Assembly (NCBI RefSeq): GCF_004010195.1
Contig: NC_057718.1
Coordinates: 74,219,604-74,283,603 of the forward strand
Source: Chiloscyllium plagiosum
Lineage: Eukaryota
DNA: 64,000 nt
Reading direction: 5' to 3'
Under the pieces are notes generated by a model. That model was not told the origin of the DNA and did no database searches. It was given only the letters and a program-made list of their open reading frames with translations. The translations under genes and the position numbers were made by a program. Of the stretch, positions 1 through 59,410 are shown piece after piece (the stretch's first letter is position 1; every line of letters starts with the position of its first letter).

Positions 1-142
1 TGGAAAAACACAGCAGGTCAGGCAGCATCTGAGGAGCAGGAGAATTGACGTTTTGGGCAGAAGCCCTTCCTGATGAAGTCGATTCTCCTGCTCCTCGAAT
101 GCTGCCTGACCTGCTGCGCTTTTCCAGCATCACACTCTCGAC
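1..142. mobile_element. PLE-derived hairpin element with degenerate HHR (cut by the window edge)
   Basis: cagcaggtcaggcagcat...ggagaattgac is mirrored by gtcgattctcc...atgctgcctgacctgctg. Same family as 10797-11007. Confidence 0.8.
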
Positions 143-2589: not shown

Positions 2590-2690
2590 AGATAGTGGAT
2601 CAGTGGTGCTGGAAGAGCACAGCAGTTCAGGCAGCATCCAACGAGCAGCGAAATCGACGTTTCGGGCAAAAGCCCTTCATCAGGAAGAAA
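2590..2690 (-). mobile_element. Solo PLE pseudo-LTR-type fragment with intact minimal hammerhead core
   Basis: Minus strand reads cCTGATGA agggc tttt gccc GAAA cGTC gattt...gatgctgcctgaactgctg. Confidence 0.8.
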
Positions 2691-3512: not shown

Positions 3513-3877
3513 CAGAACACAGGGGGCTAACACCTTCAACATATTGTCAAGCTATCACCATTGTTAACAGCTAACCCGAGAATGCAATTTTAAAAAAAAG
3601 GGTTTTGTGATTTACACAAGAAAGAAGTGAAACTATCACTGTATTCTAACAGATGAAAGGCTTAACAGACAATCAATTTTTCAATGTATAATTTCAGTTA
3701 CATCACACTGCAAATTTTGCTATAAATTCTGTGTTACGATCAAGCCCTCCACAATCACCTGATGAAGGAGCGTTGCTCCAAAAACTAGTGTGCTTCCAAT
3801 TAAACTGTTGGACTATAACCAGGTGTTGTGTGATTTATAACTTTGTACACCCCAGTCCAACACCGGCATCTCCAAAT
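3513..3877 (+). mobile_element. Second PLE-type family element with degenerate HHR
   Basis: cac CTGATGA aggagc gtt gctcc aAAA actA gtg at 3756-3790. Shares about 150 nt with 33710-33865. Flanked by catgaca (3506-3512 and 3878-3884), a possible TSD. Confidence 0.7.
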
Positions 3878-10129: not shown

Positions 10130-12510
10130 CTGGGAAGTCAAAAGGGAGCTACCAAAATACCATCAACATATCTCCTGTTCCTCCAGGGATAAAAAATCTT
10201 TGACCATTGTTACACAACTGAAGATGTCTACCACTTCAAAACCCATCTGCACTTTTGAAAATCAGATCACAATGCTGTGTTCTTCTTCCCAACTTACAAG
10301 CAGAAGTTGAAACGTGAGGACCCAGTATAGAAAGTAGTACAGTGCTGGTCTGAAGCAGCAAAAGAGCTTGGAATTGGTGGATTGGTCCACATTCAAGAAT
10401 TCAGCATACAATCTAGTATGCCACCACTGTAATGGACTTCATTAGCATGTGAGTACAGGACTGCTGAACAAAAAATGTCAGTCCGTATGTTCTCTAATCA
10501 GAAACCATGGATGAACTGAGAAATCCACGGTCTACTAAAAACGAGGTGTGGACTGGTCAAGTCAGACAACCGTCACCGTAACAGGAAATCTAAGACAAAA
10601 CACCAGACTAAGTTAGACCCAAACTTACCACACACCTGCCTACACGACATGACAGGCTACAAAGTGAAGCAGAACAGAATGGCCGATAAAAATACATCCC
10701 TCCTTGATGCGTTCTGATCAAACAGAAGATCAGTGAAATGGTGTCACCTGCCCCAAAGACTCAGATACATCTGTTTCCTCAATCACCACTGCAGATATCA
10801 GAGATGGAAATGTGTTGCTGGAAAAGTGCAGCAGGTCAGGCAGCATCTAGGGAACAGGAGAATCGACGTTTCGGGCATTAGCCCTTCTTCAGGCTAATGC
10901 CCGAAACGTCGATTCTCCTGTTCCCTAGATGCTGCCTGACCTGCTGCGCTTTTCCAGCAACACATTTCCATCTCTGATCTCCAGCATCTGCAGACCTCAC
11001 TTTCTCCACTGCAGATATCAGACCAGCCTTCTTGAGAGTGAACCCATGGAAAGCGACTGCCCAGACAGCGTCCTCGGCCATACATTCAGATCCTGTACAG
11101 ATCAGCTGGCGGGAGTATTCGCTGCCATCTTTAACCTCTCCTTGCTACAATCTGAAATCCCCACCTGCTTCAAGAAAATCACCATTATCCCAGTACCAAA
11201 GAAAACACATGCAATGTGCCTCAATGATTGCGGCCTGGTGGCTCAGACGTCCATAATTATGAAGTGCTTTGAGAGATTGGTCATGGCTCATATCAGCTCT
11301 AGTCTCCCAGCCTGCCTTGATCCCTGGCAAGTTGCCTACTGCACAACAGGTCCATGGCAGACACCATGTCCCTAGCCCTACATTCATTTCTGAAACAACT
11401 GGACAATAAAGGATACCTATGTCAGGCTTCTGCTTATTGACTACCGCTCAGCCTTGAACATTATAATCCCAACCAAAATAATCTCCAAACTCAAGACCTA
11501 GTTCTCTGCTCCACCATCTGCAACTAGATCCTCGACTTCCTGACCCACAGACTGAAATCAATGAGGATAGGTGACAGCACTTTCTTCACAACAATCTTTA
11601 ACACCGGCACCCTGCAAGGTGGCATACTCAGCCACCTACTGTACTCCCTATACACTCATGACTATGTCCAAATTTCATCCAAACACCATTTACAAATTCA
11701 CTGATGACACTGCCATTGTAGGCTGGATCTCAAACAATGATGGAACAGAACACAGGAAAGAGAGAGAACATTGGTAGTGTGACATAAAGATAACAATCTT
11801 TCCCTCAACGTCAGCACAATGAAATGGCTGGTCATTGACTTTAGTAAGCAAGGAAGATATTCCCCTATCTACATCAATAGAGTTGAGGTAGAGATAGTTG
11901 AGAGTGTCAAGTTCCTAGGAGTGATGATCACAATCTGCGCCAGTCATGAATACACAACAATACCTCTTCTTCTTCAGAAGGCTAAGGAAATTCGACATGT
12001 CCATAGGACTCTTACCAACTTTTATAAATGCACCATAAAAGGCATTCTATCTAGATGCATCACAACTTGCTATGGCAACTGCTCTGACCAGGGCTGTAAG
12101 AAACTACAAGAGTTGTGAACACAGCCCTGTCCATCACATGAGCCAATCTTTCATCCACTGACTTTATCTACACTTCTTGCTGCCTTGGAAAAACAACCAA
12201 CATCAAAGACCCTTCCCATATCGTTTGTAAATTCTTCTGACCACTTCTGTCAGGCAGATAGTACAAAAGCTTAAACACATGTACCAATAGGTTTAAAACA
12301 GCTTCTTCTCTGTTGTTGACTTTTGGACCTCTCAAGTTTAAAATCTAATGTTGATCTTGCTTTTGTGTGCCTTATTGCAGCCATAACTTTGTATTCCTCA
12401 CTCTGTTCTGTCACCCCATGATCTTTGTATGTTATGATCTGTCTGCATTGCATGCAAAACAAACTGCGCTGTATCTAGATATCTGTGCCAATAATAAAAT
12501 CAAAATTAAA
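10130..12510 (+). mobile_element. Rex1/Babar-type LINE remnant
   Basis: QLAGVFAAIFNLSLLQSEIPTCFKKITIIPVPKK...TSIIMKCFERLV and YKFTDDTAIVG motifs. 3' aataataaaatcaaaa tail. Confidence 0.8.
10797..11007. mobile_element. PLE-derived hairpin insertion with HHR core and 17-bp TSD
   Basis: 87-bp inverted arms at 10797-10883 and 10892-10978 with 1 mismatch and an 8-nt loop. ccactgcagatatcaga is duplicated at 10786-10802 and 11006-11022. Confidence 0.9.
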
Positions 12511-35099: not shown

Positions 35100-36125
35100 A
35101 AAAGTACTGGTATAATAAGTATTGAGGAGGGATGCTTTCAACTTTAGGACGATAAGTCAGATGGGTTGAATGGTGGCAAATGGTGGCAAATAGCACTTAA
35201 TCGTGTAAGTGTGAAATGATACATTTTGGGAGGACTAACAAAGCAAAGGAGTATACATAGAATGGTAGAACCTTGAAAGTACAGACGATCAGTTGAACCT
35301 AGCTGTGAATATCCATGAGACCTCGAAGGCAGCAGGACAGGTAGATAATGTGATTAAGAAGGCATTAGGGATATGGGGTAATTATTTTTATTAGTTGAGG
35401 CATTGAATACAAGAACAGGGAGGTTTTGATAGAACTGTATGTGAGACATTGGCTAGGCTACAACTGGAGTAGTGTGTGCTGTTTTGATTACCACTGTGTA
35501 GGAAGAATATGATTAGATAGGAGAAGATGTAGAGGAGATTCACCAGAATGTTGCCTGAGCTGGAGTGTTTTAGTTATGAAGAGAGACAACAGAGGCCGAG
35601 GTTATTTTCCTTCGACCAGAGAAGACTGAGGGGGGACCTTACTGAGTCAAAAGTGTGGTGCTGAAAAGCAAAGCAGGTCAGTGAGCATCCGAGGAGCAGG
35701 AGAGTCCACGTTTCGCGCATAAGCTCTTCATCAGGAATTCCTGATGACTCTCCTGCTCCTTGGATACTGCCTGACCTGCTTTGCTTTTCCAGCGCTATAG
35801 TTTTATCTCTGATCTCCAGCATCTGCAGTCCTCACTTTCTCTTCATTGGAGGACATTACTGAGGTCTATAATTTTTTAGGGGCATAGATTTAAGATAAGG
35901 GACTATTAGTTCAGTGGGGATTTAAGAAGAATTTTATTCATCACAATGGTGGGTGATGGGTATCTGAACTCAGCTTACAGTTAAGAAGTACATAGGTGAA
36001 TGTTTGAAATGCCATGGCTTCCAAGGCTGTGGGCCAAGTGCTGGGAATTAGATAGGTGATCAGTGACAGGTGCAGACATGATGTAACAAAGGGTCTCTTT
36101 CTCTACTGTCATATGCCATGACTCG
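35100..36125 (+). mobile_element. Degenerate CR1 3' fragment interrupted by a PLE hairpin
   Basis: CR1 motifs on both sides of 35645-35845. Confidence 0.8.
35645..35845. mobile_element. PLE-derived hairpin insertion (older) with degenerate HHR
   Basis: Inverted arms. Imperfect TSD ggaccttactgag (35634-35646) versus ggacattactgag (35851-35863). Confidence 0.8.
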
Positions 36126-37554: not shown

Positions 37555-37680
37555 CTCTGAATTAAGTTCCAAACAAGAGTCACAGTGAAACAAAATATTA
37601 ACTTAGTTTCTCTCCACACAGATGCTAACAGATCTGTTGAGATTTTCCAGCAACTTTTATTTTTATTTCAAAATTCCAAA
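37555..37680 (+). mobile_element. Old PLE-type pseudo-LTR fragment (third family)
   Basis: tttctctccacacagatgct...tttccagcaac, homologous to 46100-46270, 47335-47400 and 57450-57550. Confidence 0.6.
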
Positions 37681-38315
37681 GACTTGCCACCAAATTCTGG
37701 AAGAAAACTGGTGATGGACAATAAATACTGTCTCAACCAGTGATTCCCATGACTTAAAAACAAAAAAAAGTCCAAATTTACTTCTGTTCCCTCTGTACTG
37801 TCCATATGGTGTTCCATAGAATAATGCACGGGTGTTTCTAAAGCCAGTGACTTTGGTCCTCCATTCATAATAACTATTCTGCATTTAATATATTTGCTCA
37901 TTCCATCACTCCCATCTTGCCCACAGAACAATCATTTAAAACTTTCCCCTCAGTTATAAGTAGTCATTTATTTTAATAGCGCAAAAGTCATTAAATTACT
38001 TGAACAATTTAAATGAGTTTGACAGGCATTCTGTATTGTTAATAGTGAATTGATAATAAACTCAATGATTTGAAACCGACTCCTTCTCTGACTTTATCTT
38101 AGGCTTCCTTTATTCATGTATCTCTCAAATTAATTTGTAGCAAGAAGTACTTCTCATTTGTAAAACATTATTTTCTGTATTTGACAACTTGTCTATGATA
38201 GATCTTTACTGGATTTATCCTTTTAAATGTTACTGGAATCTAATTGCAGAGTCCACCATCCTCCTATATTCTTACTTCTTTTTTGGTTTGGACAGGCTTG
38301 TGAAGGATACAGGAC

Positions 38316-38347
38316 AAGAGTTAAGTTAAGATCTTAACTTAACTCTT
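38316..38347. repeat. Perfect 32-bp palindrome
   Basis: aagagttaagttaagatcttaacttaactctt equals its own reverse complement. Confidence 0.95.
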
Positions 38348-38579
38348 AAGTTAAGATCTTAAACTTTCACGGAAAGTTCTCTACGAGTTGCACTGTCGCT
38401 TAGCTATCCTTCACAGGATTAATTGTAATCTAATTTTATATCTTCCCTTAGCGATCACTTCATTTTGGGTGAGAAATTGTTGCACACAGTATCATAGTGT
38501 GTAGAACTTTCCCTGTCTTTCATTTTTCATTAACAACCATCAAATGTTTTGTTTTTCCTTATTGTGATATATCATCCTG

Positions 38580-39325
38580 TTCAGCTGTAGCTCACTTGGT
38601 GTCCCTCTAATCTCTAGCCTGTAGATTTGAGTTCAAGTTCCACCCCAGAACTGGAGCACAAAGATTAGTGTTGACACCCAAATGTAGTACAAGGTACTAA
38701 GGGAATGCTGCACTGTTAGGTGTGTCCTCTATCAGATGTGATAATGAACTGAGTCTATATCTGCTCGCTCAAATGGAAATGAAAAATCCCACAGCACTTT
38801 TGAAGAACAGCAGATGAGTTATCACTTATGTTCTGACTAATAGTTATTCCTCAATTAACATCACAAAACAAATCTTATCATTGGGTGGCACTGTGGCTCA
38901 GTGGTTAGTACTGCTGCCTCACAGCGCCAAGGACCTGGGTTTGATTCCGCCTTAGGCAGCTCTCTGGAATTGCATGTTCATCCTGTGTCGGCATGGGTTT
39001 CCTCTCACAGTCAAAATATAAGCAGATTAGGTGGATTGTCTACAGTGTTCAGGGATGTGTTAAGCTAGGTGGATTAGTCATAATAAATGTGGGGTTGTGG
39101 GGGATTGGGTCGGTGAATGCTCTTTTCAGTGTCAATATGGGCTGAATGGCCTCTTTCTGCACTGTAGGGATTCCGTGATCTTATGATTATCAAATTGCTG
39201 CTTCTGTGAACATCATATAAACAGGCTGCCTTGGGACTTACAGCAGTGGCTGAATTTTAAAAAGTTGGCAGCAACATATTTGGTAATGTTAGTGGCTGTG
39301 TAAAGTGCTATATTGATGCAAGTCT
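38580..39325 (+). mobile_element. DeuSINE (SacSINE1-like) interrupted by a V-SINE (38883-39178, +)
   Basis: tRNA-like head (gagttcaagttcc). Deu-domain-like aaaatcccacagcacttttgaagaacagcag...tattcctcaattaacatcac. 3' aaagtgctatattgatgcaagt. The nested SINE has A box tggctcagtgg. Confidence 0.7.
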
Positions 39326-39939
39326 ACTTTTGCTCAATACTATAGCATGCATCAAACAAGCTGTATGTTAAGAATACTGACAGCCTATTACTGACACACA
39401 GAGTGTGAATATTTGCCAATAACTGCTTTGTAAATCACTTTTTCAGGTTGACAATTATTGCCCAGACCGAAAGGTACTGGGTCAAACTCCAGTGGAAATT
39501 AATCTTTGCATCTTGTTTATTAGTGATTATAGTTATGACTTAGAAAAGTGAATGCAACAAACCAATCAATCATTTATATTTATCATAACACAAGAGAGGA
39601 GAATTCCATATGACCCAATGATAAGGGTTCAACTCACTTAATCTTGAACTTTATTAATATTGCAGGGAAGTAAGCATGGTTAAAATTCTGCTACACACTA
39701 TTTTGAGTGCACTGATAACTGTATTCATGCCATATTCTTATTTTCTAAATGGTTTGGCAACTTAGTTAAGTAGATCACATGTGAAATTAATAATAATGTG
39801 ACCATTATTGGATGCTGTGAACAACAAAAGGAAGATTTGCAAATTTGTTGGTCATTGCTTCCAGAGTCAATGTAGGCTTTTTCTAATTTTAAAATTTGAT
39901 TTAGCAAATTAGCTTATAAATTCAGGCCAGTGAGGTCAG

Positions 39940-42900
39940 TGATAAAAAGAAACTTGAGCAAGTTGGATAAAATACTGGGTGAGGGATAAGAAACAGAAAG
40001 TAATAGTTAAAGGATATCTTTCAGGCTAAAATGTTTGACGTGGAATGGCCCAGGGGTTAGTATTGAGATCCGTGCACTTCTACATATACCAATAAATGGT
40101 CTACATCTTGGTGCACAGGAGACAATTTCAAGGTTTGTAGACAACACAAAATTTGCCTGAATTGTAAATTGTGAGGAGGATAGTGAGACTTCAAAGCGAT
40201 GTTGACAAGTTTGTGGAGTGCAAGATTGGGTGACAAGTGAAGTTCAATGCGGAGAAGTGTGAGGTGATACATTTTGACACAACAGTCAGGGACAGCCAGT
40301 ATTAAACAAAGGGTATTATTCTAAAGGGTGCATAAGAGCAGAGGGGTATTGATGAACTGGGTATGATGCTCTAGTTAGACCTTAGTTGAAATATTGTGTA
40401 CAGTTCTGGATGCCGCACAATAGGAAGGATGTGCTGCAATGGTTTATATGAATGGTTCCAGGGATGGAGCTTGAATTATGAAGGAAAACTAGAGAAGTTG
40501 AGACTGTTTTCTTTGGTGAGGAGTAGGTGAAGAGAAGATAAGATCAAAGATTTCAATATCATGAGGGATCTGGATAGAATAGATAGGAAGGAGCTATTTC
40601 CACTTGTAAAAAGATTGAGAACCAGAAAGCTCAGACATAAAATTTTTCAAAAGAAGCAAATGCAAGATGAGAAAAAAAATCACAATTCTGTAGTTAGGAT
40701 CTGGAATGCACTGTTTGGACACGTGATGGTTCACTTAAGGAATTCACAAGGATGCTGGATAAATATTTAGCCAACGTGGAAACAATGCGCAGCGTTATGG
40801 GGAAAAGGCAGAATTAAAAAGCTCAGAGTGCCGACGCATTCACATGAACCCATTTTCTAAAACATTCAGTCACAGCATGTGGGTGTCACTGGCTAGGCCA
40901 ATATTTATTGCCCATTTCTAATTGTCTACATGGCAGTTAAAAGCCATATAATCCCTAAATTGTGGAATGAGGCCATTCAGCCCATTGTGTTCACACCAAC
41001 CCTCTAAAGAGCTTCCCACCCCCTACCCCTGTAACCATGCATTTCCCATGGCTAACCCACCTTGCCTGTGCATCCCTGGGCACTACGGACAATTTAGCAT
41101 AGCCAATTCACCTAACCTGCACATCTCTAGACTTTGGGAAGAAAGTGGAACACCTGGAAGAAACCCACACAGACACAGGGAAAATGTGCAAACTCCACAC
41201 AGACAGTCACCTGAGTGTGGAAACAAACCTGCGTCCCTTGCTCTGTGAGACAGCAGTGCTGACCACTGAGTCACCATTTTGCCACATTCCCATTGCTGTG
41301 AGTCTGGAGTCAAATGAAGGACAGACCAGGTAAGGGCGGCAATTTCCTTCCCTAAAGAACATTAGTGATTCAGATATTTGGGTTTCATGACCATCATAAA
41401 ACATAGAATAGTACAGCATAGTAGAGGCCCTTTGGCCCTCAATGTTGTTCCGACCTTTTATCCTACCCTAAGGTCAAACTAAACTGCATACCCATCATTT
41501 TACTACCATCCATGTGCCTATCCAAGTGTCGCTTAAATGTCCCTAATGTATCTGACTCTACCGCTGGCAGTGCATTCCATGCACTCTGTGTAAAAAAAAC
41601 GATCTCTGACATCTCCCCTAAATCTTCATCCAATCACCTTAAAATTATGCTCCCTTGTGTTAGCCATTTCTGCCCTGGTAGTTCTGCCTCATCATCTTGT
41701 ACACCTCTATCAAGTCACCTCTCATCCTTCTTCTTTCCAATGAGAAAAGCCCTACCTCCCTGAACCTTTCTTCATAAGACATGCCCTCCAGTCCAGGCAG
41801 CATCTTGGTAAAGCTCCTCTGCACCATCCATATAATGAGGCAAACAGAACTGACCACAATATTCCAAGTGTGGTCGAACCAGGGTTTTATACAGCTGCAG
41901 CATAAGCTTGTGGCTCTTAAATCCAATGTCCTGCTAATAAAAACGAACACACCATGCGCCTTCTTAACAACCCTATTAACTTGGGTGGCAACTTTGAGGG
42001 ATCTATGGAACTGGACCCCAAGATCCCTTTGTTCCTCTACACTGTCAAGAATCCTGCCTTTAACCCTGTATTCTGTTTTCAAATTCGATTTTCCAAAATG
42101 AATCACTTCCCACTTTTCTAGGTTGAACATTCCAGAAAGTTTATTAAATTCAAATTCCACCATCTGCGATAGCAACATTCAAATCCAGACCTCCAGGACA
42201 TCATCTGGGTCTCTTGATTAATAATCCAATGACCCACTAGGCCATCACTTCCCCTCTCCCCAAATCATTCTCCCTTATTCTGTAATTCTATGACCTATAA
42301 TACTTAATGTACTCTTACAAAATCTTTCTGAGAACTTGATTCAGCAACACTCTTATCAAAGGGACTCGTGAATTCAGACAATTGAATTGTGATTCATTCG
42401 CATTTTATCAAAGTCAGTTTGTCATGAGTGTGATATTTTGAGCTGTGATAGGTACTCAAACGTATGGCATGCACTAAAATCAAAAATGTTACGTACAAAT
42501 AGTATAATACAATGTATCATCTGCATATGTTATAAAACACATAAGGAAGGTTATGGGACATTTGTACAAATATTATGTCAGATTTTTACTAACAGGGGAA
42601 GGAAGGGATGGTTCTGGCACAACTGCCCAAAAAGGTAATGAAGAAACCAACAGGGAGAGTTTCTGAGGGGTTCTACCCAACCTCTTTCATTACTTTGGTT
42701 GATTCGTGTAAATCATGGCTTCTTGTGGGATGTTTTACTCATCTTCTGCTGGGATTATGCTCAAAGATTGGGAGAACACCTCTATCCAAACCCCCCCCCC
42801 CCCATAAATTTTAGGTGACCACCCCTTTTAAAATGCTGTGCTTCCATTTATGTTGCTACATTGCCACCGATCTTCATGTCATCGACAAATATGAAATTAT

Positions 42901-44195
42901 GATTTTCTATCCCATCAGCTAAGCCTTAAATAAATATGACAAATATTTGAAGCCCCTACATTGATCCTTGCAGCACACCATTGGACACATCCTTCTAATT
43001 TAGATACCTGTACATTATCTTTGCTGTCTTCTGACATAGCCAATGTCCTAACCACGTCAGTAATTTTATGAGCTTCATTAAGCTAATAGTCTTTAATGAG
43101 GAACTTTATCAGATGCCTTTTGGACATCCATATATAAGTCAGTTATTAGCCACATATCACTCCTTAAAAATCAGCGTACTCCTTTCCGTCTTACAGATGC
43201 ATGATATTGTATGTAAAGTTTTCCACTCCTATCTGCACTTCAATACATTCCTCACAGTTTCTAACATTTTAATGGGTCTGTAATGGGCAGTGGAGATTTT
43301 GTAACAGTTGGTTGAAAGGGCTTCTCCCACTAAGCATTTACCACAAGCTCTGTATTTGTAGGGGCTTATGGATTTGCACTAATATCATTAGAAGACTGCA
43401 GGCATGCAGACTGAACTCTGATGGTTGTCAATGCGCTGCACAGTTTAGCCAATTAAATGTTAACCATGGATCCAGAAGAGTGCAGGTTCATAGCTCCTTG
43501 AAAATGGAATCACAGGTAGATAGGATAGTGAAGAAGGCATTTGGCATGCCTTCCTTTATTGGACAGAGCACTGGATATAGGAGTTAGGAGGTCATGTTGC
43601 AGCTGTACAGGGAGAAAGTGAGGGCTGCAGATGCTGGAGATCAGAGCTGAAAATGTGTTGCTGGAAAAGCGCAGCAGGGCAGGCAGCATCCAAGGAACAG
43701 GAGAATCGACGTTTCGGGCATAAGCCCTGAAGATTTACAAGGACGTTACCAGGCTTGGAGGGTTTGAGCTACAGGGAGAGGCTGAATAGGCTGGGATGAG
43801 TTTCCCTGGAGTGTCAGAGGCTGAGGGGTGACCTTATAGAGGTTTATAAAATCATGGGAGACATGGATAGGGTAATTAGACAAAGTCTTTTCCTTGGGAT
43901 GAGAGAGTCCAGAATAGAGGGCATAGGTTTAGGGTGAGAGGGGAAACATTTAAAAGGGACTTAAGGGACAGTTTTTTTTCACTCAGAGGGTGATGTGTGT
44001 ATGATAAGCTGCCAGAGGAAGTGGTGGAGGCTGGTAAAATTACAACATTTAAAATGCACAAAGATGGATACACGAATAGGTAGGGTTTAGGGGGATATGG
44101 GCCAAGTGCTGGCAAATGGCACTAGATTAGGTTATCTGATCGGCATGGCCGAGTTGGACAGAAAGGTCTGTTTTTGTGCCGTACATCTCTATGAG
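39940..44195. mobile_element. CR1 fragments (39940-40820 +, 41395-42135 -, 42800-43200 -, 43478-44195 +) and a V-SINE (about 40960-41285, -)
   Basis: CR1 RT and 3' motifs in ORFs 40561, 41660 and 43312. SINE A box and V-domain on the minus strand. Confidence 0.82.
43610..43728 (-). mobile_element. Single-arm PLE-derived insertion inside CR1
   Basis: ggagaaagtgagggctgcagatgctggagatcagag...gacgtttcgggcataagccc. Truncated just before the CUGANGA box. Confidence 0.85.
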
Positions 44196-44217
44196 TGTAA
44201 CAGCATACAATTTATCC

Positions 44218-44605
44218 CTGACACCCCAGTGGGGTTGTTACACTGCTGGAGTTTCTATCTTTTGGACAGGACATTAAACCAAGGCCCCATCCCTACTTTG
44301 TAAGCGGGCAGAAAATAGTATATTCTGGATCAGTGGTGCCGGAAGAGTACAGCAATTCAGGCAGCATCCGACCAGCAGCAAAATGTCAGTCTTTAAAGAA
44401 GAACAGGAAAGGTCTCCGTGGACTTCTAGTCAACATTCATGACTCCACCAACGTTCAGAACCGTATTACCAGTTGCTATTTGTGGGAGTTTGCTGCGTGC
44501 ACCCTGAATGCTTTGTATCCTGCTTAAGTACACTTTAAAAATACATCGTCGACTGTAAAGTCCTTTGGGATGCTTTGAGATTGTTAAATAGAACATAAAT
44601 GCATT
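44218..44605 (+). mobile_element. DeuSINE-like element close to nt5e exon 1, with a small PLE fragment inserted (about 44325-44385)
   Basis: gacattaaaccaaggcccc...aagaagaacagg...ttgctatttgtgggagtttgctgcgtgca...gtaaagtcctttgggatg resembles the Deu domain and 3' tail. Confidence 0.65.
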
Positions 44606-44742
44606 TTTTTTTGTATCTCTGGAAAGGAAATGAAAAACAAAAGTTTGCTTAATATTTGATTGCAAAACTACTCTGTACATGGAGAAGGTACACTTTTACA
44701 ATGGTTTTAGCCGGTATAGCCAGCACAGTAGTACGTTCTTAC

Positions 44743-45069
44743 CATTGCATTGTATCCCAGCTCGTTCATGAAGTGGGCTGCCTCGGCACCCTTGTAATAA
44801 TTGAACCATATGGTTCCCTGGTACTGATCCCCTGCATCCAGCAGCAGGACATTCTTCTCCTTCTCCTTGATTTGGCGGATTGCTGTCAATCTCCTGGCCA
44901 CGCCTGCGTAGCAGTTGGAAGCACACATGCTCGAATCCACGCTGGTCTCCTCCACTCTGCCGTGTACATCATTAGTGTGAAGAATCGTGAGATCGAAGGA
45001 AGAAGTGCGTGTGATGCAGAAGACGGTCAGCAGCCAGAGACACAGGAGCAGAGCACAGGGACAGCCCAT
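44743..45069 (-). CDS. nt5e: Ecto-5'-nucleotidase (CD73-like), coding exon 1: signal peptide plus start of the metallophosphoesterase domain
   Basis: Translates MGCPCALLLCLWLLTVFCITRTSS-FDLTILHTNDVHGRVEE...LLLDAGDQYQGTIWFNYYKGAEAAHFMNELGYNAM, with the NDVH and DAGD metal-binding motifs. Strong Kozak context (actATGG). Ends ATG|gtaaga, a phase-0 donor. 327 nt. Confidence 0.96.
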
Positions 45070-45300
45070 AGTAAGCGAGCGTTAGTCTAGCGTGCTGCTG
45101 CTCCACCGAGATTAAATGAAGTTGAACCCTGAAGTCTCCGCTGCATATAAGCGGTAGGCGGAGCATTTTTTCACTTTAGGTCATACTTACTAACAAACGT
45201 AAAACGTACGGGAGTTCATTATTGGCTCCAAAGCTTCACGTTTTCTGCAGAAATTTGAGAACATTTGTTGGCAAAATAACGTTTCGTTTTTAGTGTGCAC
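45070..45300 (-). promoter_or_regulatory. Probable 5'UTR and proximal promoter of nt5e
   Basis: Non-repetitive and locally CpG-enriched sequence immediately 5' of the ATG. Weak TATA-like CTTATATG at about 45143-45150 and a GC-box-like GGCGGAG at about 45157-45163. The transcription start is not determinable from sequence. Confidence 0.5.
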
Positions 45301-45789
45301 ATGTTAAAATATTTGCTTTCTCCCACCATTCAAGCGTGCCTGGAAGTTTTCCTAAGTCACTAATTTAATATTGAGCTCTGACTGTGGTGGTAGCACTGAC
45401 TTGAAGGTTCTGATGCTGTTCTGAACACTTGAACACACAGACCAAGCTCACTTTCTACTCCAGACCCTTCGATTCGAAGATCATCATTGCTGAAGTGTTG
45501 TCGGAAGATACACATGGAAGTTCCTTTCGGCTGACTCACAAGAATTGTTTGCGTTGGGAAAGTTTTCAAACATTCCCACCTCTCAGTTTGAGTTGGTATA
45601 GCTGGAGGATTCCGAACTGTATTTGTGTGCTGATGAAACTTGGACATCACTGACGTGGCCACTGCATTCCTTAAGGTGTAAGGACACCCACAGTGCTTTA
45701 GCAAGGTCTAGGAGCTTTGATGGGGCGACAGTGAAGGAATGGCAGTACATTTCCGAGTTAAAATGTGTGATCACTTTCTTATCATTCTG

Positions 45790-45940
45790 ACCTTTTCCTC
45801 ACCCATAACCGTCCCCACCCAACTTTTATCTGCACTCCCACCCCCACCTCCAGTCCTGAAGAAGGGCTACGCCCGAAACGTCTCCTTCTCCATCTCCTGA
45901 TGCTGCCTGGCTTGCTGAGTTCCTCCAGTGCCTTCCTGCG
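45790..45940 (+). mobile_element. PLE pseudo-LTR-type fragment with intact HHR core, about 0.8 kb upstream of the nt5e ATG
   Basis: CTGAAGA agggc tac gccc GAAA cGTC at 45856-45882, followed by ...ctgatgctgcctggcttgctg. Confidence 0.75.
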
Positions 45941-46099
45941 ACTTGGAGAGCAACCTGGAGATCATTCAACACAACAGTGAGAGAGAAGGCAACAAGAGGA
46001 TATACTGTACTATAGCCCAGGATCAGGGGTCTAGCACTTCACCTTCAGTACAGCAGGGAGAGAAGAAGCAGCAAGAGCTTATATTGAGTTTAAAAAAAA

Positions 46100-47400
46100 A
46101 ACCAAAAGGGCTGCAGATGCTGGAAATCAGAAACAAAAACAGGAATTGCTGAAAACAAAAACCTCAGCAGGTCTGGCAGTATCTGTGGAGAGAAAGCAGA
46201 AATAACGTTTTGAGTCCAGTGACCTTCCTTGAGAACAGGTTCCTTAGTTCTGAAGAAGGGTCACTAGACCTGATCCTGGGCTTCAATACATCCTCTTGCT
46301 GCCTCCTCTCTCACTGCTGTGTTCAACCACTGGCAAGTTACACCTCAACGATTGCAGTGCCTCATGAGTGATGCCCACATCCCATCAACACATAAATAGA
46401 GGTTGGAATCCTTCAACTGCATCACCTCTAACTGAGAGATGGCAATGTTTTCAAACTTCCCCAATGTAAACCATACCATATAGTCAGAGTCATAGTGACG
46501 TACAGACCCTTCAGTCCAAATCGTCCATGCCGACTAGATATCCTAGATAAATCTAGTCCCATTTACCAGTATTTGGCCCACATCCCTCGAAACCCTTTCT
46601 ATTATAAACCCATCCAGATGCCTTTGAAATGTTGCAATTGTGCCAGTTCCACCACTTCCTCTGGCAGCTCATTCCGTATACATACCGCCCATTGCCCCTC
46701 ATGTCTTTTTTCAATCTTTCCCCTCTCACCTTAAACCTATGCCCTCTAGTTCTGGAATCCCCCCACCCCAGGCAAATGACCTTATCTGTTTATCCTATCC
46801 ATGCTCATCATGGTTTTACAAACCTCTATAACGTCACCACTCAGCCTCCAGGGAAAATAGCCTCAGCCTATTCAGCCTCTCCCTATAGTTCAAACCTCGG
46901 CAACATCTTTGTAAATCTTTTCTGAATTCTTTCAAGTTTTAGAATATCTTTCCTACAGCAGGGAGACCAGAATTGCACACAATATTCCAAAAGTGTCCTA
47001 ACCAATGTCCTGTACAGCCGCAAAATGAGCTCCCAACTCCTATACTCAATGCACTGTCTAATAAAGGAAAGCATACCAAATGCCTTCATCACTGTCCTCT
47101 TTACCTGCGACTCCACTTTCAAGGAACTATGAACCTGCACTCCAAGGTCTCTTTGTTCAGCAACACTCTCCAGGATCTTACCATTAAGTGTATATGTCCT
47201 GCCCTGAATAGCCTTTTCAAAATGCAGTACCTCACATTCATCTAAATTAAACGCCATCCAGTTATATGGACCTTCCACATGAGTCTTCCAACAACAATTC
47301 AGCAATGATGATGTTCTAATCGAAGGTCTGGAGTGTTAATTTTGCTTTCTCTCTACAGGTGCTGACATACCTGCTTGGTTTTTCCAGCAATTTCTGTTTT
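46100..47400. mobile_element. Old PLE hairpin split by an inverted copy of local DNA and a CR1 (46478-47259, -)
   Basis: Left arm at 46100-46235 (-). The right arm begins gttCTGAAGAagggtcactagacc (46247-46270) and resumes gttaattttgctttctctc...ccagcaatttctgtttt (47335-47400). tatattgag is duplicated at 46080-46088 and 47408-47416. Confidence 0.7.
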
Positions 47401-47430
47401 CTAAGACTATATTGAGGTTCATGATTGGGG

Positions 47431-47964
47431 AAAGTGAGGACTGCAGATGCTGGAGATCAGAGCTGAAAATGTGTTGCTGGAAAAGCGCAGCAGGTCAGGG
47501 AGCATCCAAGGAGCAGGTGAATCGACGTTTTGGGCATGAGCCCTTCTTCAGGAATGAGGAGAGTGTGCCATGCAGGNNNNNNNNNNNNNNNNNNNNNNNN
47601 NNNNNNNNNNNNNNNNNNNNNNNNNNNNNNNNNNNNNNNNNNNNNNNNNNNNNNNNNNNNNNNNNNNNNNNNNNNNNNNNNNNNNNNNNNNNNNNNNNNN
47701 NNNNNNNNNNNNNNNNNNNNNNNNNNNNNNNNNNNNNNNNNNNNNNNNNNNNNNNNNNNNNNNNNNNNNNNNNNNNNNNNNNNNNNNNNNNNNNNNNNNN
47801 NNNNNNNNACGCCCCTCCCCCAAGTCCCTCCTCCCTACCTTTTATCTTAGCCTGCTTGGCACACTCTCCTCATTCCTGAAGAAGGGCTCATGCCCGAAAC
47901 GTCGATTCTCCTGCTTCTTGGATGCTGCCTGACCTGCTGCGCTTTTCCAGCAACACATTTTCAG
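47431..47964. mobile_element. PLE-derived hairpin insertion with HHR and 14-bp TSD; centre is an assembly gap
   Basis: Inverted arms on either side of the N run. CTGAAGA agggc tcat gccc GAAA cGTC at 47876-47903. TSD gttcatgattgggg at 47417-47430 and 47964-47977. Confidence 0.9.
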
Positions 47965-48154
47965 TTCATGATTGGGGGCCCAGCACTTAACTTTCACAGA
48001 GCAGAGAGGAAGAAGACAGCAAGAGGCCTTTACTAATGGCAATTAAGAGTTAACCACCTTGCTGTGAATCTGGAGTCATTATCAGGCCAGACCAGGCAAG
48101 GATGACAGATTTCCTTCCCTAAAGGACATTAGTGAATTAAAAAGGTTTTTGAGT

Positions 48155-50395
48155 CATAGAGTCATTGTATTCTGCGGCACAGGAAAAGATCTTACCAAAA
48201 TGAACACTTAACTTTCTAATCCCCTTGGCCTTTAGCTTTGTATGCCTTGGCATTGCACGTGTACATCTAAAAAGTTTTTAGATGTTATGAGGACTTCGAT
48301 CTCTACCACTTTTACAGGCAGTAAGTTCCAGATTCTCACTACTACCTGGATGAAAAGATCTTTCTCTAAACCTCCTATCCTTTACCTCAAACCTATGCTC
48401 TCTGGTCATTAATCCCTCCACCAAGGGAAGTGTTCTTTCCTGTCTTCCTTATCTATGCTCCTAACAATTTTAGACATCTCGATCAGTCCATCCTGAGTCT
48501 TGTGTCTCATTCTAGTCATAGAGCCATACAGCATGGAAACAGAACCTTCTGCCCAGCTTGTCTGTGCCGACCAGTTATCCATTTATCTGTGTTTGGCCTG
48601 TTACCCACAAAACCTTTGCTATCCATGTACCTGTCCAAGTGTCTTTTAAATGTTGTAATTGCCTCTACCATTTCCTCTGGCAGCTCATTCCATATGCACA
48701 CCAACCTCTATGTGGAAAAGTTGTCCTTCAGGACCCTCTTAAATCTTTCCCCTCTCACTTTAAACCCATGACCTCCAGTTTTGGACTCCCAAACCCTGGG
48801 GAAAAGACCTTGGCTATTCACTTTATCTATGCCTCTTTATGATTTTATAAACCTGTCTAAGGTCAGTCCTCAGCCTCCTATACTCCAGGAAAAAAAACAT
48901 CCCAACTCATCCTTATAACTCAAACCTTCCAATCTCAGTAAGATCGTTGTAAACCTTCTTTGAACCCTTTCCAGTTTAATAACATCCTTCCAATAGCAGG
49001 GCGACCAGAATTGTACACAGTATTCCAAATGTGGTGTGACCAATGTTCACAGACAGAACATGATGTCCCAACTTGTATACTCAATGCTCTGACCAATGAA
49101 AACAAGCGTTCCAAATTCCTCCTTCATCAGTCTGTCTACTTGTGATATTACTCACAAGGAATATGTTCCTACACATCTAGGTCACTCTGTTCGACAACTC
49201 TCCCCTGGGTCTAACCATTAACTGTGTAAATCCTGCCGTAGGCTGTCTTACCAAAATGTAACACCTCACATTTATTTAAATAAAACTCCATCTGCCATTC
49301 CTCAGCCCACTTTCAGTTGCTCATTGTACTCTGAGATAACCTTCTTCACCATTCACTATGCCACCAATTTGATGCCATCAGCAAACTTAGTAACTAAGCC
49401 TCCTATATTCTCATCCAGATTGTTTATATAATGACAAACAATAGTGGAACCAGCATCAAACCTTGTGGCATGCTACTCTCGGGCATGACAGACCAGGGAG
49501 CATTTCAATGTTCCTGGAGATTATGTCTGCAGGAAGTGTGTTTGGATGTGAATCTATTGGATCGCATGGCTCGGTTGAAGTAGTAGTTAGAGGCAGTGAG
49601 GAATTTACAGGAACCAGGGTGTGATGGTTGGCAGTTTCAGGAAGGGAGAAATTGCAGATACAATCAAACAGCTGGGTTACCACTCGGAAAGGTAGGGTTA
49701 TAGGAGAGGTAGGCAGGTAGTACAGGAGTCTCCTGTGACTATCACCATCTCAAACAAGTATGCTGTTTTTGATAATGTTGATGGTGATGGCCTTTGAGGG
49801 GAATATAACACTGACAGCCAGGTTTCTAATACTGAGACTGGCTCTATTGTAATGAGGGGTATTTCAGGTTCCAAGTGATCCATCGTGATGGAAGACTCTT
49901 CAGTCAGGGACATAGACAGACGTTTCTGCAGCTGACAGCAAGACATCAGAATGGTGTGTTGCCTTCCTTACACCCGGGTCAAGGATGCCTTGGAGAAAGT
50001 GCAGAATATTTTGAAAGAGGAGAGTGATCAGCATATGTTGTTGGGCAAGTTGTTGGCCAAAATCAAAGGAAGAGAAAGAGATGAGCTTCTGCAGAGAGAA
50101 TATAGGAAATAAGGCAGGAAGTTAAAAAGTATGTCCTTGAGGGTGGTAATATCCAGATTACTCTCAGTGCCCTGTGTTAATGAGAGTAGAAATAGGATAG
50201 GACAGATGAATGCATGGCTGAGAAGCTGGTGCAGAGGACAGGGATTCATGTTTTGGATCATTGGGATCTCTCCTGGTGCAGAAATGACCTGTCTAAGAAG
50301 GTCATTTGCACTTAAGATGAAAGGGTACAATATCCTTGTGGGGAGATTTGCTTATGCTACTCTGGAACTTTTAATGTATAAAGCAGGGAGGTAAA
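48155..50395. mobile_element. CR1 3' fragments (48155-49480, -) and CR1 ORF1 remnant (about 49490-50395, +)
   Basis: RT and 3' motifs. ORF1 remnants: CRKC-like zinc-finger piece, DRRFC, VVISRLLSVP...MNAWLRSWC esterase region. Confidence 0.82.
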
Positions 50396-53593: not shown

Positions 53594-56500
53594 CATAGAA
53601 CATAGAACAATACAGCACAGAACAGGCCCTTCGGCCCACGATGTTGTGCCGAACATTTGTCCAAGCTTAAGCACCCATCCATGTACCTATGCAATTGCCG
53701 CTTAAAGGTCACCAATGATTCTGACTCTGCCACTCCCACAGGCAGCGCATTCTATGCCCCCACCACTCTCTGGGTAAAGGACCTACCCCTGACATCCCCC
53801 GTATACCTTCCACCCTTCACCTTAAATTTCTGTCCACTTGTAACACTCTGTTGTACCCGGGGAAAAGGTTTCTGACTGTCTACTCTATCTATTCCTCTGA
53901 TCATCTTATAAACCTCTATCAAGTCACCCCTCATCCTTCGCCGTTCCAANNNNNNNNNNNNNNNNNNNNNNNNNNNNNNNNNNNNNNNNNNNNNNNNNNN
54001 NNNNNNNNNNNNNNNNNNNNNNNNNNNNNNNNNNNNNNNNNNNNNNNNNNNNNNNNNNNNNNNNNNNNNNNNNNNNNNNNNNNNNNNNNNNNNNNNNNNN
54101 NNNNNNNNNNNNNNNNNNNNNNNNNNNNNNNNNNNNNNNNNNNNNNNNNNNNNNNNNNNNNNNNNNNNNNNNNNNNNNNNNNNNNNNNNNNNNNNNNNNN
54201 NNNNNNNNNNNNNNNNNNNNNNNNNNNNNNNNNNNNNNNNNNNNNNNNNNNNNNNNNNNNNNNNNNNNNNNNNNNNNNNNNNNNNNNNNNNNNNNNNNNN
54301 NNNNNNNNNNNNNNNNNNNNNNNNNNNNNNNNNNNNNNNNNNNNNNNNNNNNNNNNNNNNNNNNNNNNNNNNNNNNNNNNNNNNNNNNNNNNNNNNNNNN
54401 NNNNNNNNNNNNNNNNNNNNNNNNNNNNNNNNNNNNNNNNNNNNNNNNNNNNNNNNNNNNNNNNNNNNNNNNNNNNNNCTTCCTTCCTAACACGTATCTC
54501 CTCTAGCTTACCAGTCCGTTTCATACTCTCCTCTTCAACAATACGGTCGCTCTCATTTGTAAATACTGAAGAAAAGTACTCATTCAAGACCTCTCCTATC
54601 TCTTCCAACTCAATACACAGTTTCCCACTACTGTCCTTGATCGGACCTACCCTCGTTCTCGTCATTCTCATGTTTCTCACATAGGCATAAAATGCCTTGG
54701 GGTTATCCTTGATCCTACCTGCCAAAGATTTTTCATCCCCTATCTTAGCTCTCCTAATCCCTTTCTTCAGCTCCCTCCTGGCTATCCTGTATCCCTCCAA
54801 CGCTCTGTCTGAACCTTGTTTCCTCAACCTTATGTAAGCCTCCTTCTTTCTCTTTACAAGACATTCAAACTCCCTCGTCAACCAAGGTTCCCTCACATGA
54901 CCATCTCTTTCCTGCCTGACAGGTACATACATATCAAGGACACGTCGTATCTGTTCCTTGAAAAAGTTCCACATTTCCACGACATCCTTCCCTGACAGCC
55001 TATGCTCCCAACTTATGCTCCNNNNNNNNNNNNNNNNNNNNNNNNNNNNNNNNNNNNNNNNNNNNNNNNNNNNNNNNNNNNNNNNNNNNNNNNNNNNNNN
55101 NNNNNNNNNNNNNNNNNNNNNNNNNNNNNNNNNNNNNNNNNNNNNNNNNNNNNNNNNNNNNNNNNNNNNNNNNNNNNNNNNNNNNNNNNNNNNNNNNNNN
55201 NNNNNNNNNNNNNNNNNNNNNNNNNNNNNNNNNNNNNNNNNNNNNNNNNNNNNNNNNNNNNNNNNNNNNNNNNNNNNNNNNNNNNNNNNNNNNNNNNNNN
55301 NNNNNNNNNNNNNNNNNNNNNNNNNNNNNNNNNNNNNNNNNNNNNNNNNNNNNNNNNNNNNNNNNNNNNNNNNNNNNNNNNNNNNNNNNNNNNNNNNNNN
55401 NNNNNNNNNNNNNNNNNNNNNNNNNNNNNNNNNNNNNNNNNNNNNNNNNNNNNNNNNNNNNNNNNNNNNNNNNNNNNNNNNNNNNNNNNNNNNNNNNNNN
55501 NNNNNNNNNNNNNNNNNNNNNNNNNNNNNNNNNNNNNNNNNNNNNNNNNNNNNNNNNNNNNNNNNNNNNNNNNNNNNNNNNNNNNNNNNNNNNNNNNNNN
55601 NNNNNNNNNNNNNNNNNNNNNNNNNNNNNNNNNNNNNNNNNNNNNNNNNNNNNNNNNNNNNNNNNNNNNNNNNNNNNNNNNNNNNNNNNNNNNNNNNNNN
55701 NNNNNNNNNNNNNNNNNNNNNNNNNNNNNNNNNNNNNNNNNNNNNNNNNNNNNNNNNNNNNNNNNNNNNNNNNNNNNNNNNNNNNNNNNNNNNNNNNNNN
55801 NNNNNNNNNNNNNNNNNNNNNNNNNNNNNNNNNNNNNNNNNNNNNNNNNNNNNNNNNNNNNNNNNNNNNNNNNNNNNNNNNNNNNNNNNNNNNNNNNNNN
55901 NNNTGAATGACCTCCCCACCCCTCTTCCTGCCTATGTCGTTGGTGCCAACGTGCACCACGACTTCTGGCTGCACACCCTCCCCCTTAAGGATTCTGAAGA
56001 CACGATCTGAGACGTCTCGGACCCTGGCATCCGGGAGGCAACAAACCAACCGAGAGTCTCGCCCATGTCCACAGAACCGCCTGTCTGTCACTCTAATTAT
56101 AGAGTCTCCTATAACTAGCGCTGTCCTCCTCTCCCCCTTTCCCTTCTGAGCCTCAGAGGCGGACCTCGTGTCAGAGACCCGGTCACTGCAGCTTACCCCT
56201 GCTAGGCCGTCCCCCCCAACAGTATCCAAAGCGGTATACTTATTGTTGAGGGGAACGACCACAGGAGATCCTGCACTGCCTACTTCCTTCCCTTCCCACC
56301 TCTAACTGTTTGAGAGAAAGTGAGGACTGCAGATGCTGGAGATCAGAGCTGAAAATGTGTTGCTGGAAAAGCGCAGCAGGTCAGGCAGCATCCAGGGAAC
56401 AGGAGAATCGACGTTTCGGGCATAAGCCCTTCTTCCTGTATGCTGCCTGACCTGCTGCACTGTTCCAGCAATACATTTTCAACTCCTCTAACTGTTACCC

Positions 56501-56932: not shown

Positions 56933-57025
56933 GAAACCCTGATGAAGGGCTTTTGCCCAAAACATTGATTTTCCTGCTCTTCAGATGCTGCTTGATCTGC
57001 TGTGCTTTCCAGCACCACTCTAACC
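56933..57025 (+). mobile_element. PLE pseudo-LTR fragment with mutated HHR
   Basis: CTGATGA agggc tttt gccc aAAA cattg...agatgctgcttgatctgctgtg. Confidence 0.75.
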
Positions 57026-57179: not shown

Positions 57180-59410
57180 AATAGATTACAGGAGTAAGTT
57201 TGTGGGAGCATGCTGCAAAATCTTTCATATGTATATGAAGAGAAAAAGATTAGAAGAGTCAGAAATAGTGGAAGTCTGGTGAGTTTTCAAAATTTCTTAT
57301 TCAAAATTGCCTTTGATTTATTATGGTTTTAGCATTGTACATGTCAAGTTTTATTTGTACATGCTAAGTTCAAAATAACAGTCAGAAACAGGGAAAATTA
57401 CATTGGTAAACAAAAAGCTGACAAAGGAAATAAATACATGTATGTAAAAGATCTGAAGAAGAGTCACTGGATTCAAAACATTAACTCTGTTTTCTCTTCA
57501 CAGATGCTGCCAGAACTGCTAAGTTTCTCCAACAATTTCTGTTTTTGATTTAAATACATATTTTGGTCCTATCTTCACAAAGATGACACAAATAACATTT
57601 TAAAAATTTTGGGGAACACATGGTCTAGTGAAAAGGAGGAACTGAAAGAAACCAGTAATAGGGAAATGGACTTGGGAAAATTGATAGGATTGATGTTTTC
57701 CTGCTAGCTGGTTTTTATGTATCCAGGTTGCTAGTTTTCTTCTGGTCTGTCTGATGTAGTATTAATGGCAGTCGTTACATGGGATTTTGTATATCATGTT
57801 GGTCCTATATGTTGCAGGTATGGGGTCTTTGACCTTATGAGTAGTTGGCATAATGTGACTGTGACATACTAGCATCAAAATGGCACAATCAATTCTCCCT
57901 CATCTCAATACACGCAGACAGGGAGGACCATCCATTTGACTGGGACAATGTTACCATCCTAGGACAAGCTTACCTGAGACATGCACGGGAATTCCTAGAG
58001 GTCTGGTTCTCAAACCAGAATGCCATCAACAAGCATGTAGAAATAGACCCCATATACAAACCATTGCAGAGCAAAACCAGAAATTATACAACCCACCTTA
58101 ACAGACTGGATCATATAAATATGAAGCGGTGTGGAACAATAATGCTTCATAGAACATAGAACATAGAAGAATAAAGTGCAGTACAGGCCCTTCGGCCCTC
58201 GATGTTGCGCCGATCCAAGCCCACCTAACCTACACTAGCCCACTATCCTCCATATGCCTATCCAATGCCCGCTTAAATGCCCATAATGAGGGAGAGTCCA
58301 CCACTGCTACTGGCAGGGAATTCCATGAACTAAAAGTTGCACTGATGATGCTTCGTAGAAGTTGCACTGATGATGTTACCTAACATGGTGACGAAGTGTT
58401 TGCATGACAACCCACCAGCTCGGCAAGCAAACATCCATCACTCGAGCCACAAATCTTCTCAAAAACCTTAAAAGGTGACGAGTACAGCATCAGTGCTAGG
58501 ACCCCAACGATTCATAATATATATTAATAATTTAGATAAGGGAATTAAATGTAATATCTCCAAGTTTGTAAGTGATGTAAACCTGGTTGCGAGGGTGAGC
58601 TGCGAGGAGGATGCAGAGATGCTTCAGTATGATTTTCACAAATTGAGTGAGTGGGAAATGCATGGCATATGAAGGTAAATGTGAGATAATCTACTTTGGT
58701 AGCAAAAACCAGAAGGCAGATTATTGTCTGAATGGTGATAGATTTGGACAGTGGGAGATGCAGAGAGAACTTGAGTGTCTTTGTGTGTTAGACACTGAAA
58801 GCAAGCAGGGGCATCGGGTGGTGAAGAAAGCACCTAATGTTGGCCTTCATAGTGAAAGGATTCAAGTGCAGGAGTAGGGATACCTTATTGCAATCATAGA
58901 GTCTTGGTGACACCATACCTGGAGTATGGTATGCAGTTTTGGTCTCCTTATCTGGGGAAAGATGTTTTGGGTATGGAGGGATTCCAGCAAAGGATTACCA
59001 GATTGATTCCTGGGATGGCAGGACTGGTATATGAAGAGAGATTGAATTAGGTATGGCAATATTCACTGGAGGTTAGAAGAATGAAAGGGGATTTTGTGGA
59101 AATCTATAAAAATCTAACAGTTGTAGACAGGCTAAATGCAGAAAAGATGGGAATCCAGAACTAGGTGACATAGGCCAAGGATGCAGGGTAGGCTATTTAG
59201 GACTGAGATAAGGAGAAATGTCTTCATCCAGAATAAGTGGGCCCATGGAATTCTCTGACAAGGGAAATGTTTGAGGCTAAAATATTGAATATTTTCTAGA
59301 AGGATTCACTCACACACACATGTGACTATGGATGATCAACCATGATAATATTGAACGGTGGAGCAGGCTGAAAGGGCCAATGCCTTATTCTGTTTCTATT
59401 TTCTATATGT
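57180..59410 (+). mobile_element. Degenerate CR1 hosting the Penelope insertion
   Basis: SVLGPQRFIIYINNLDKGIKCNISKF.. (58475 onward) and CR1 3' motifs up to about 59410. Confidence 0.8.
57695..58470. mobile_element. Penelope-type element 3' end with GIY-YIG endonuclease, 5'-inverted, carrying an HHR in its 3' repeat
   Basis: Minus strand 57830-57695: KDPIPATYRTNMIYKIPCNDCH*YYIRQTRRKLATWIHKNQLA. Plus strand from about 57868: LASKWHNQFSLISIHADREDHPFDWDNVTILGQAYLRHAREFLEVWFSNQNAINKHVEIDPIYKPL. HHR-like motif at 58363-58404. CR1 tail inserted at 58149-58330. Confidence 0.85.

Follow-up and report, generated by a model that had tools for sequence, protein, structure and literature searches.

Hammerhead-bearing hairpin insertions in the genome of Chiloscyllium plagiosum as probable 5'-truncated ends of Penelope-like elements primed from two target nicks

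A 64,000-nucleotide stretch of the Chiloscyllium plagiosum genome (referred to as the window) contains a family of small hairpin insertions with head-to-head arms, which are most likely extremely 5'-truncated ends of Penelope-like elements (PLEs), each probably made at insertion by reverse transcription primed from two nicks in the target. The five hairpins observed in the window are real, and the family itself is real and abundant, although the type of element is not new. Two features go beyond the published PLE layout, namely the non-nested centres of the hairpins and the stops of their arms at the front edge of a hammerhead motif. Positions within the arms are numbered with +1 as the first base past the predicted GUC cut, which places C3 of the CUGANGA box at −28.

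An inverted-repeat scan of the window returned all five inverted-arm pairs described in an earlier note on this DNA, and BLAST searches enlarged the family to 13 arms at eight loci by adding three single arms absent from that note (Table 1). A truncated copy inverted head to head is present at five of these eight loci. The two arms of the focal copy at 10.8 kb overlap by 2 nt. The copy at 1–142 leaves the window, and one of its ends was checkable. In the 47.4-kb copy, both arms extend upstream of the hammerhead, at least to −53 and −95, and run into a gap of 232 N (47577–47808) which covers the centre and hides the axis and the true length.

Table 1. Hairpins, single arms, target site duplications (TSDs) and hammerhead motif of the family in the window
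Feature	Position	Strand	Extent and remarks
Focal copy, left TSD	10786..10802	+	17 bp
Focal copy, left arm	10803..10893	−	short 3' end (+62) to −29; whole hammerhead core inside
Focal copy, right arm	10892..11005	+	from −19 in helix II to long 3' end (+95), tail included
Focal copy, right TSD	11006..11022	+	17 bp, exact match to left TSD
Edge-cut hairpin	1..142		left arm to −23; central sense fragment −31..−20; right arm from −3 to short end
Older hairpin (201 bp), with TSD	35631..35863		left arm from short end to −32; central sense fragment −32..−22; right arm beginning at +1, with long end and 6 additional bases
35.7-kb TSD	35631–35646/35848–35863		16 bp, 2 mismatches (14/16)
47.4-kb hairpin, with 14-bp TSD	47417..47977		left arm with long end; right arm with short end
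47.4-kb TSD	47417–47430/47964–47977		14 bp, exact
Minimal hammerhead motif	47876..47903	+	CUGANGA, one extra A, 4-bp helix II, GAAA, palindromic ACGU, GUC
56.3-kb hairpin (174 bp), with 12-bp TSD	56299..56496		left arm with long end, reaching −26; right arm beginning at about +12, with short end
56.3-kb TSD	56299–56310/56485–56496		12 bp, exact
Single arm	43611..43733	−	−21 to long end
Single arm	56938..57018	+	−29 to short end
Single arm, diverged subfamily	2603..2686	−	starts at −31; hammerhead motif intact

Comparison of the flanks bore out the three exact TSDs of 17, 14 and 12 bp claimed at the outset, while the fourth, first read as an imperfect duplication of 13 bp, is indeed imperfect but 16 bp long with two mismatches. 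In a chance control, flanks were paired at random 2000 times; words in common of at least 12 letters turned up once, and of at least 8 letters 92 times. Deleting the insert together with one TSD in silico yielded a continuous host peptide frame in all three copies tested (10.8, 35.7 and 56.3 kb), and this read-through stands in for an empty site at these loci. The TSDs and the restored frames support the original description of the hairpins of about 200 bp as discrete insertion events. The host frame of the focal copy is RT-like and continuous across the site with one TSD. Based on peptide motifs, we take the host repeats to be CR1-like and Rex1-like, the 35.7-kb copy presumably lying in the end of a CR1-like ORF2 and the 56.3-kb copy in a CR1-like ORF1; a Pfam search gave no match for these repeats. 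The claim that one copy breaks a CR1 ORF1 agrees with the frame restored across the site at 56.3 kb, the CR1-like label being presumptive. The single arm at 43611–43733 has no TSD, and about 86–101 bases of the host repeat are gone there in comparison with three paralogous copies; by this comparison, the arm evidently replaced host bases and the target was not duplicated. The single arm at 56938–57018 may have a TSD, the same 8-base word having been spotted by eye in its two flanks. The TSD length is variable across the copies (12, 14, 16 and 17 bp), with target deletion instead of duplication at one single arm.

The core of the hammerhead motif, the extra base between positions 9 and 10.1, the G10.1–C11.1 pair and the palindromic 15.2–16.2 positions were all present, and by its sequence the terminal repeat holds a minimal PLE hammerhead, a putative ribozyme. 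A strict minimal-hammerhead descriptor matched five times in the window and in none of 100 Markov controls; three of the matches lie within the hairpin family and two in other families with different helix II sequences. These matches support the earlier identification of a PLE pseudo-LTR (pLTR) with a minimal hammerhead. Rfam at E≤1 reported no hammerhead family, and its weak matches were to microRNAs (six families, all far below threshold), snoRNA and tmRNA. As judged by eye, helix I has only 2 bp, followed by a U-U mismatch and a single further pair; the predicted fold of the 47.9-kb motif differs from the active one and does not contain helix I. For minimal PLE hammerheads, a helix I of 4–5 bp has been described, with 2 bp in the D. 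virilis variant (PMC4209133). The metazoan PLE motifs in the same source share with ours the CUGANGA box, the extra base before helix II, the G10.1–C11.1 pair and the palindromic minimal helix III; ours differs from them in a helix II that is 4 bp long and a helix I with only 2 bp and a mismatch. The long arm folded no better than its shuffles (z 0.51). A polypyrimidine tract leading to an AG at 47826–47850 lies 25 bases upstream of the hammerhead core; it is similar to a 3' splice site and recalls the intron of the Drosophila Penelope pseudo-LTR.

All four complete copies have one long 3' end at +94..+96 and one short end at +60..+63, the arrangement noted before as a fixed terminus on one arm and an earlier stop, often with microhomology, on the other. 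Taking the ends as independent coin tosses, the chance of this pairing in four of four copies is 1 in 16. The two ends are 31–36 nt apart in every complete copy, and this gap is the known PLE tail, which is likewise found at one end in published elements (PMC8557442; PMC3846280). The long ends overlap the target by 0–2 nt and carry 3–6 extra bases in two cases, and the short ends overlap the TSD exactly by 6, 3, 1 and 1 bases. At the short end of the focal copy, the first six TSD bases, read in element sense, match the template at +63..+68. Both arms of the complete copies are antisense on the strand extending from the adjoining TSD. The single arms end at either site, the one at 43.6 kb at the long and the one at 57.0 kb at the short.

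Family members outside the window were sought in assembled contigs of three DNA runs (X1, X5 and X11; two from organism A and one from organism B), which were matched to 47260–48330 at 85% likeness. The matching contigs numbered 113,212, 94,544 and 95,797 in the three runs. Counting the loose ends with long, unrelated flanks, at least 1177 (X1), at least 838 (X5) and 1242 (X11) contigs ended at the long end, and at least 569, at least 385 and 555, respectively, near the short end; the latter pile-up sits behind 47957, and the loose consensus runs about 10 bases further to the short site. An empty site for the 47.4-kb copy in other individuals or in organism B was found neither among the 15 joints listed out of 1303 nor in any bridging contig, the depth of its flanks being near zero.

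The four visible centres all differ from one another, and three of them (1–142, 10.8 kb and 35.7 kb) have mutually non-nested sides: either one arm carries the tail and its sister additional hammerhead sequence, or there is a central fragment which is missing from the left arm. Because each side of these centres contains template bases absent from the other, the template was copied twice, and a single cDNA folding back cannot build them. For these three copies, this contradicts a fold-back origin, in which the first arm, as cDNA or as self-primed antisense RNA, would serve as template for the second, and microhomology would join the latter to the target. Such a fold-back would account for variants shared by both arms and for the microhomology at the short ends, and it fits the 56.3-kb copy, where one arm is contained in the other and the junction is ambiguous, so that this copy does not discriminate. 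A perfect palindromic centre at −32..−29, as fold-back would leave, was found again in many contigs genome-wide, and self-priming has been put forward for palindromic PLE junctions (PMC3846280). Since it also leaves the single arm ending at the short site unexplained, we consider fold-back improbable as the general route. Priming from both target nicks, as proposed in the earlier note, is the best fit to the junctions in the sample of four visible centres. The recurrent centre at −32..−29 would also suit a preformed palindrome moving as a unit, either a MITE-like DNA transposon or a master hairpin, against which stand the varying TSDs, the unequal ends, the non-conserved interior with its four differing centres and the single arms; we therefore rejected a MITE or DNA transposon and regard a preformed element as close to impossible. 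A retrozyme array was likewise rejected, all eight loci in the window being single or head to head.

Eight of the 11 visible 5' arm ends lie within −32..−19 and three further downstream, and 10 of all 13 arms extend past the cut site at least into helix II, which means that their template was uncleaved at this place. As the arms stop mostly at the front edge of the hammerhead and not at the cut site, cleavage probably does not fix the axis. The axis, placed before in or just upstream of the hammerhead core, is tied to the front edge and not to the cut site. Self-cleavage making the template's 5' end, and thereby fixing the axis, could be read from the right arms at 35.7 kb and 1–142, which begin at or within a few bases of the cut. 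It is hardly credible in view of the arms crossing that site, of a helix I of 2 bp in a motif whose active fold is not the predicted one, and of the finding that cleavage is dispensable in vitro for a related PLE (PMC11167929). The joints tell against it as well: among the 15 listed out of 1303, 12 connect a left to a right arm, and in all 12 the sense arm restarts at −34..−8, never at +1, while the antisense arm stops at −31..−36 in seven. Two of the 15 listed joints combine a tail-only left piece with a hammerhead-bearing right piece, the form which simple twin priming on one RNA would give; each was seen in one or two contigs per run, with a short side of less than 30 letters. Two older hairpins share a three-piece centre (at 70–78 and 35736–35747), in which the antisense arm is followed by a 10–12-base sense fragment of the front edge; the sequence then skips helix II and resumes no more than 3 bases from the cut site.

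The two arms of a hairpin were on average 8.7% apart (five pairs), compared with 15.5% for arms of different hairpins (40 pairs), a contrast that is exaggerated by subfamily structure. For seven of the 10 arms, one of them tied, the sister arm was the nearest neighbour, as expected from the claim that arms are closer within than between copies; both 56.3-kb arms and the right arm of 1–142 are exceptions to it. The 10.8-kb arms differ at one of 78 sites and share two variants unseen in any other arm of the window, as had been noted for this copy. Two such shared variants were also found at 35.7 kb and one at 47.4 kb. The variant first regarded as private to the latter copy is common genome-wide, the alternative T at position 47889 making up 63%, 65% and 48% of the summed depth in the three DNA runs. 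The 56.3-kb arms are 13% apart without a shared rare variant. A common source of both arms, close to the original assertion of one template, is likely for some copies. One RNA read twice is indistinguishable in such data from two RNAs of one source locus.

Upstream of the hammerhead, the depth of the matching contigs fell to 0.20, 0.14 and 0.10 of the peak at −68..−33 in the three DNA runs, and to about 0.15, 0.09 and 0.04 at −95..−69, the latter for the right arm only and with possible edge effects; summed contig depth does not equal copy number. In X1, 75 contigs carry on upstream of 47809 with an agreement of 0.81. The upstream depth and these agreeing contigs indicate that the stubs grade into longer copies. 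The truncation is clustered instead of uniform; ends accumulate strongly at the hammerhead's front edge, in excess of random truncation, and this could reflect a dedicated short RNA. No RT/GIY-YIG ORF was tied to the family; the 41-residue open frame of the arm matched no longer protein in a weak search, and exact-pattern scans gave no match in metagenome or viral contigs and none in phages. In the RNA run X21, of which about 2% was sampled, 3665 reads matched in both orientations, and 96% of them continue into unlike sequence, which looks like read-through; no position was found where many molecules start or end, this poly(A) single-cell library being a weak test. An index look-up gave no RNA run for 37600–47560, a result without bearing on expression. 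In D. virilis, 46 bp lie between the start of the Penelope transcript and a 75-bp intron downstream (PMC2377424), the 3' end of which maps to the start of helix I (PMC4209133). By analogy, an RNA start near the hammerhead would be plausible here.

The same two-nick route might operate on another template, a dedicated short RNA from about −32 to past +96, transcribed from scattered stubs and mobilised in trans, so that the hairpins would be a SINE-like, hammerhead-headed non-autonomous family as the earlier note had suggested. The clustered 5' ends and the five- to ten-fold drop in depth upstream of the hammerhead agree with such an RNA, and the sister-arm variants absent from other arms in the window (10.8, 35.7 and 47.4 kb) suggest many sources. 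In addition, PLE ends can act in trans (PMC3846280), and retrozymes have been proposed as PLE derivatives (bioRxiv 10.64898/2026.07.22.740005). However, a normal PLE mRNA would yield the same stub if the RT used 5'-proximal sites and ran off the end, as may be deduced from PMC11167929; the longer copies have upstream sequence in common, and the X21 reads, within the limits of that test, show no sharp ends. We consider a dedicated RNA possible but unlikely. An ordinary PLE mRNA has its RT start sites close to the 5' end and can thus give rise to stubs, and the single arms and longer copies likewise require no separate class. Together with the differing centres and a layout equal to that published for PLEs, this leaves the distinct non-autonomous class suggested before unsupported.

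Published PLE insertion units consist of an inverted 5'-truncated pLTR copy, a tail and a TSD (PMC3846280, PMC8557442, PMC2377424). Like the EN+ PLEs described there, the hairpins have a head-to-head inverted pLTR, a tail at one end only (30–40 bp in the published units), a TSD, and a palindrome or small overlap at the inverted junction. In contrast to them, both halves measure only about 50–125 nt with no ORF between, the TSDs are 12–17 bp compared with 8–10 bp in rotifer examples, and the density is high, with eight loci of one family in 64 kb. The family thus agreed with EN+ PLEs in every structural comparison made, which suggests kinship by layout. PMC4209133 describes mostly dispersed single hammerhead motifs as "probably related to truncated PLEs" and reports opposite-strand hammerhead pairs about 100–700 bp apart in Schistosoma; its available portions contain no TSD or junction analysis of such pairs and no sharks. 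Poseidon, a PLE of the green anole, nicks and extends both strands in vitro; its RT starts at two internal sites that delimit the tail, the protein is predicted to be dimeric, mainly uncleaved RNA is used, and ribozyme cleavage is not needed (PMC11167929). The distance from cut site to main start region is about 85–92 nt in Poseidon versus 94–96 nt here, and in contrast to Poseidon no ORF start is established in our arm; the inverted structure is not derived from two-sided priming in the available text of that paper. Non-LTR retrozymes are also small, non-coding, hammerhead-bearing and tied to PLE pseudo-LTRs (PMC7229834; bioRxiv 10.64898/2026.07.22.740005), but they form head-to-tail tandems of cut-to-cut units with a type I hammerhead each, whereas the loci described here are head to head or single and not bounded by cut sites. 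The abundance of PLEs in a shark genome has already been published (bioRxiv 10.1101/443036, PMC8455134). In a mainly open-access literature search, we found no paper with PLE hairpins lacking an ORF in cartilaginous fish as its subject, nor, judged by titles and abstract openings, any application of twin priming to PLEs. Twin priming as it occurs in L1 elements involves two nicks which prime two cDNAs, joined head to head by microhomology inside the TSD; the two halves have hardly any overlap, and the position of the second site varies. The hairpins differ in that their halves overlap by about 50–85 nt, both sites are fixed and poly(A) is missing.

Further PLE sequences occur in the window. 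A decayed coding remnant of the GIY-YIG region at 57690–58460 represents one ORF split in two, the halves lying head to head with some 20 bases of filler; it is interrupted by another repeat and ends in a hammerhead-like motif near 58367. Its peptide yielded 250 homologues at E≤0.001 (full HMMER); of 12 long ones scanned, six contained RVT_1 and three GIY-YIG, with both in one. Aligned to one homologue, residues 135–181 are on the minus and 178–272 on the plus strand, head to head with a 4-residue overlap. The terminal sequence is unlike that of the hairpin family, which makes the remnant part of another PLE family, with twin-priming geometry in a protein-anchored PLE of the same window, which speaks for two-nick priming. 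No TSD was seen around it by eye; it was missed by the word-index search and by direct Pfam and PDB searches, and Atlas served as a lead only. At 45965–46326, a second PLE-end family lies inside an inverted, not direct, flank duplication of about 60 bases, and its antisense piece stops inside helix II at a short flank match; this has the appearance of an insertion rearranged by template switching. At least three more families with a hammerhead are represented by ends at 3759, 33796, 45761–45935, 57453–57550, 47335–47400, 37607–37678 and 44333–44384, some of them decayed and several also starting at or near the hammerhead. On the minus strand, 44707–45081 matched Pfam Metallophos (E 1.1e-5) and is presumably the first coding exon of a 5'-nucleotidase-like gene.

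For the preferred reading of two-nick priming on PLE RNA, the following course may be envisaged. A PLE protein would nick both strands 12–17 bp apart; the cDNA primed by one nick would begin, with little pairing, at the distal start site (+94..96), and that primed by the other at the proximal site (+60..63), aided by 1–6 nt of pairing. Both cDNAs would pass the uncleaved hammerhead and mostly end at or just inside its front edge (−32..−19), the stop zone being likely the 5' end of the RNA. Microhomology of 1–3 nt would then serve to join the cDNA ends, in some cases along with a brief snap-back or a jump of template, and gap filling would yield the TSD, while copying from one side alone would give a single arm. 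In this scheme, the TSDs, the two end positions, the anatomy of the junctions and the gradation into longer copies are read from the sequences, whereas we infer the enzyme, the order of events, the RNA start and the number of RNA molecules used (one or two).

The origin of the inverted ends of PLEs has been described as unresolved (PMC8557442, PMC3846280). Because the stubs are so short, a single sequence covers the two nicks, the two start sites and the centre, and the roughly 95,000–113,000 matching contigs per DNA run represent a natural data set on how PLE inversions are formed, which bears on two-nick priming versus self-priming and on an RNA start at the front edge of the hammerhead. On the practical side, such hairpins can be mistaken for MITEs or microRNA precursors, and one of them spans an assembly gap. 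As a more speculative proposal, which we put forward with considerable reserve, a PLE dimer might read one uncleaved RNA twice, the templates in this lineage being short hammerhead-headed RNAs from scattered stubs; these would make up a non-autonomous family that seeds itself and attains a very high copy number. If this were true, one RNA read twice from two start sites would explain the inverted-plus-tail layout of all PLEs.
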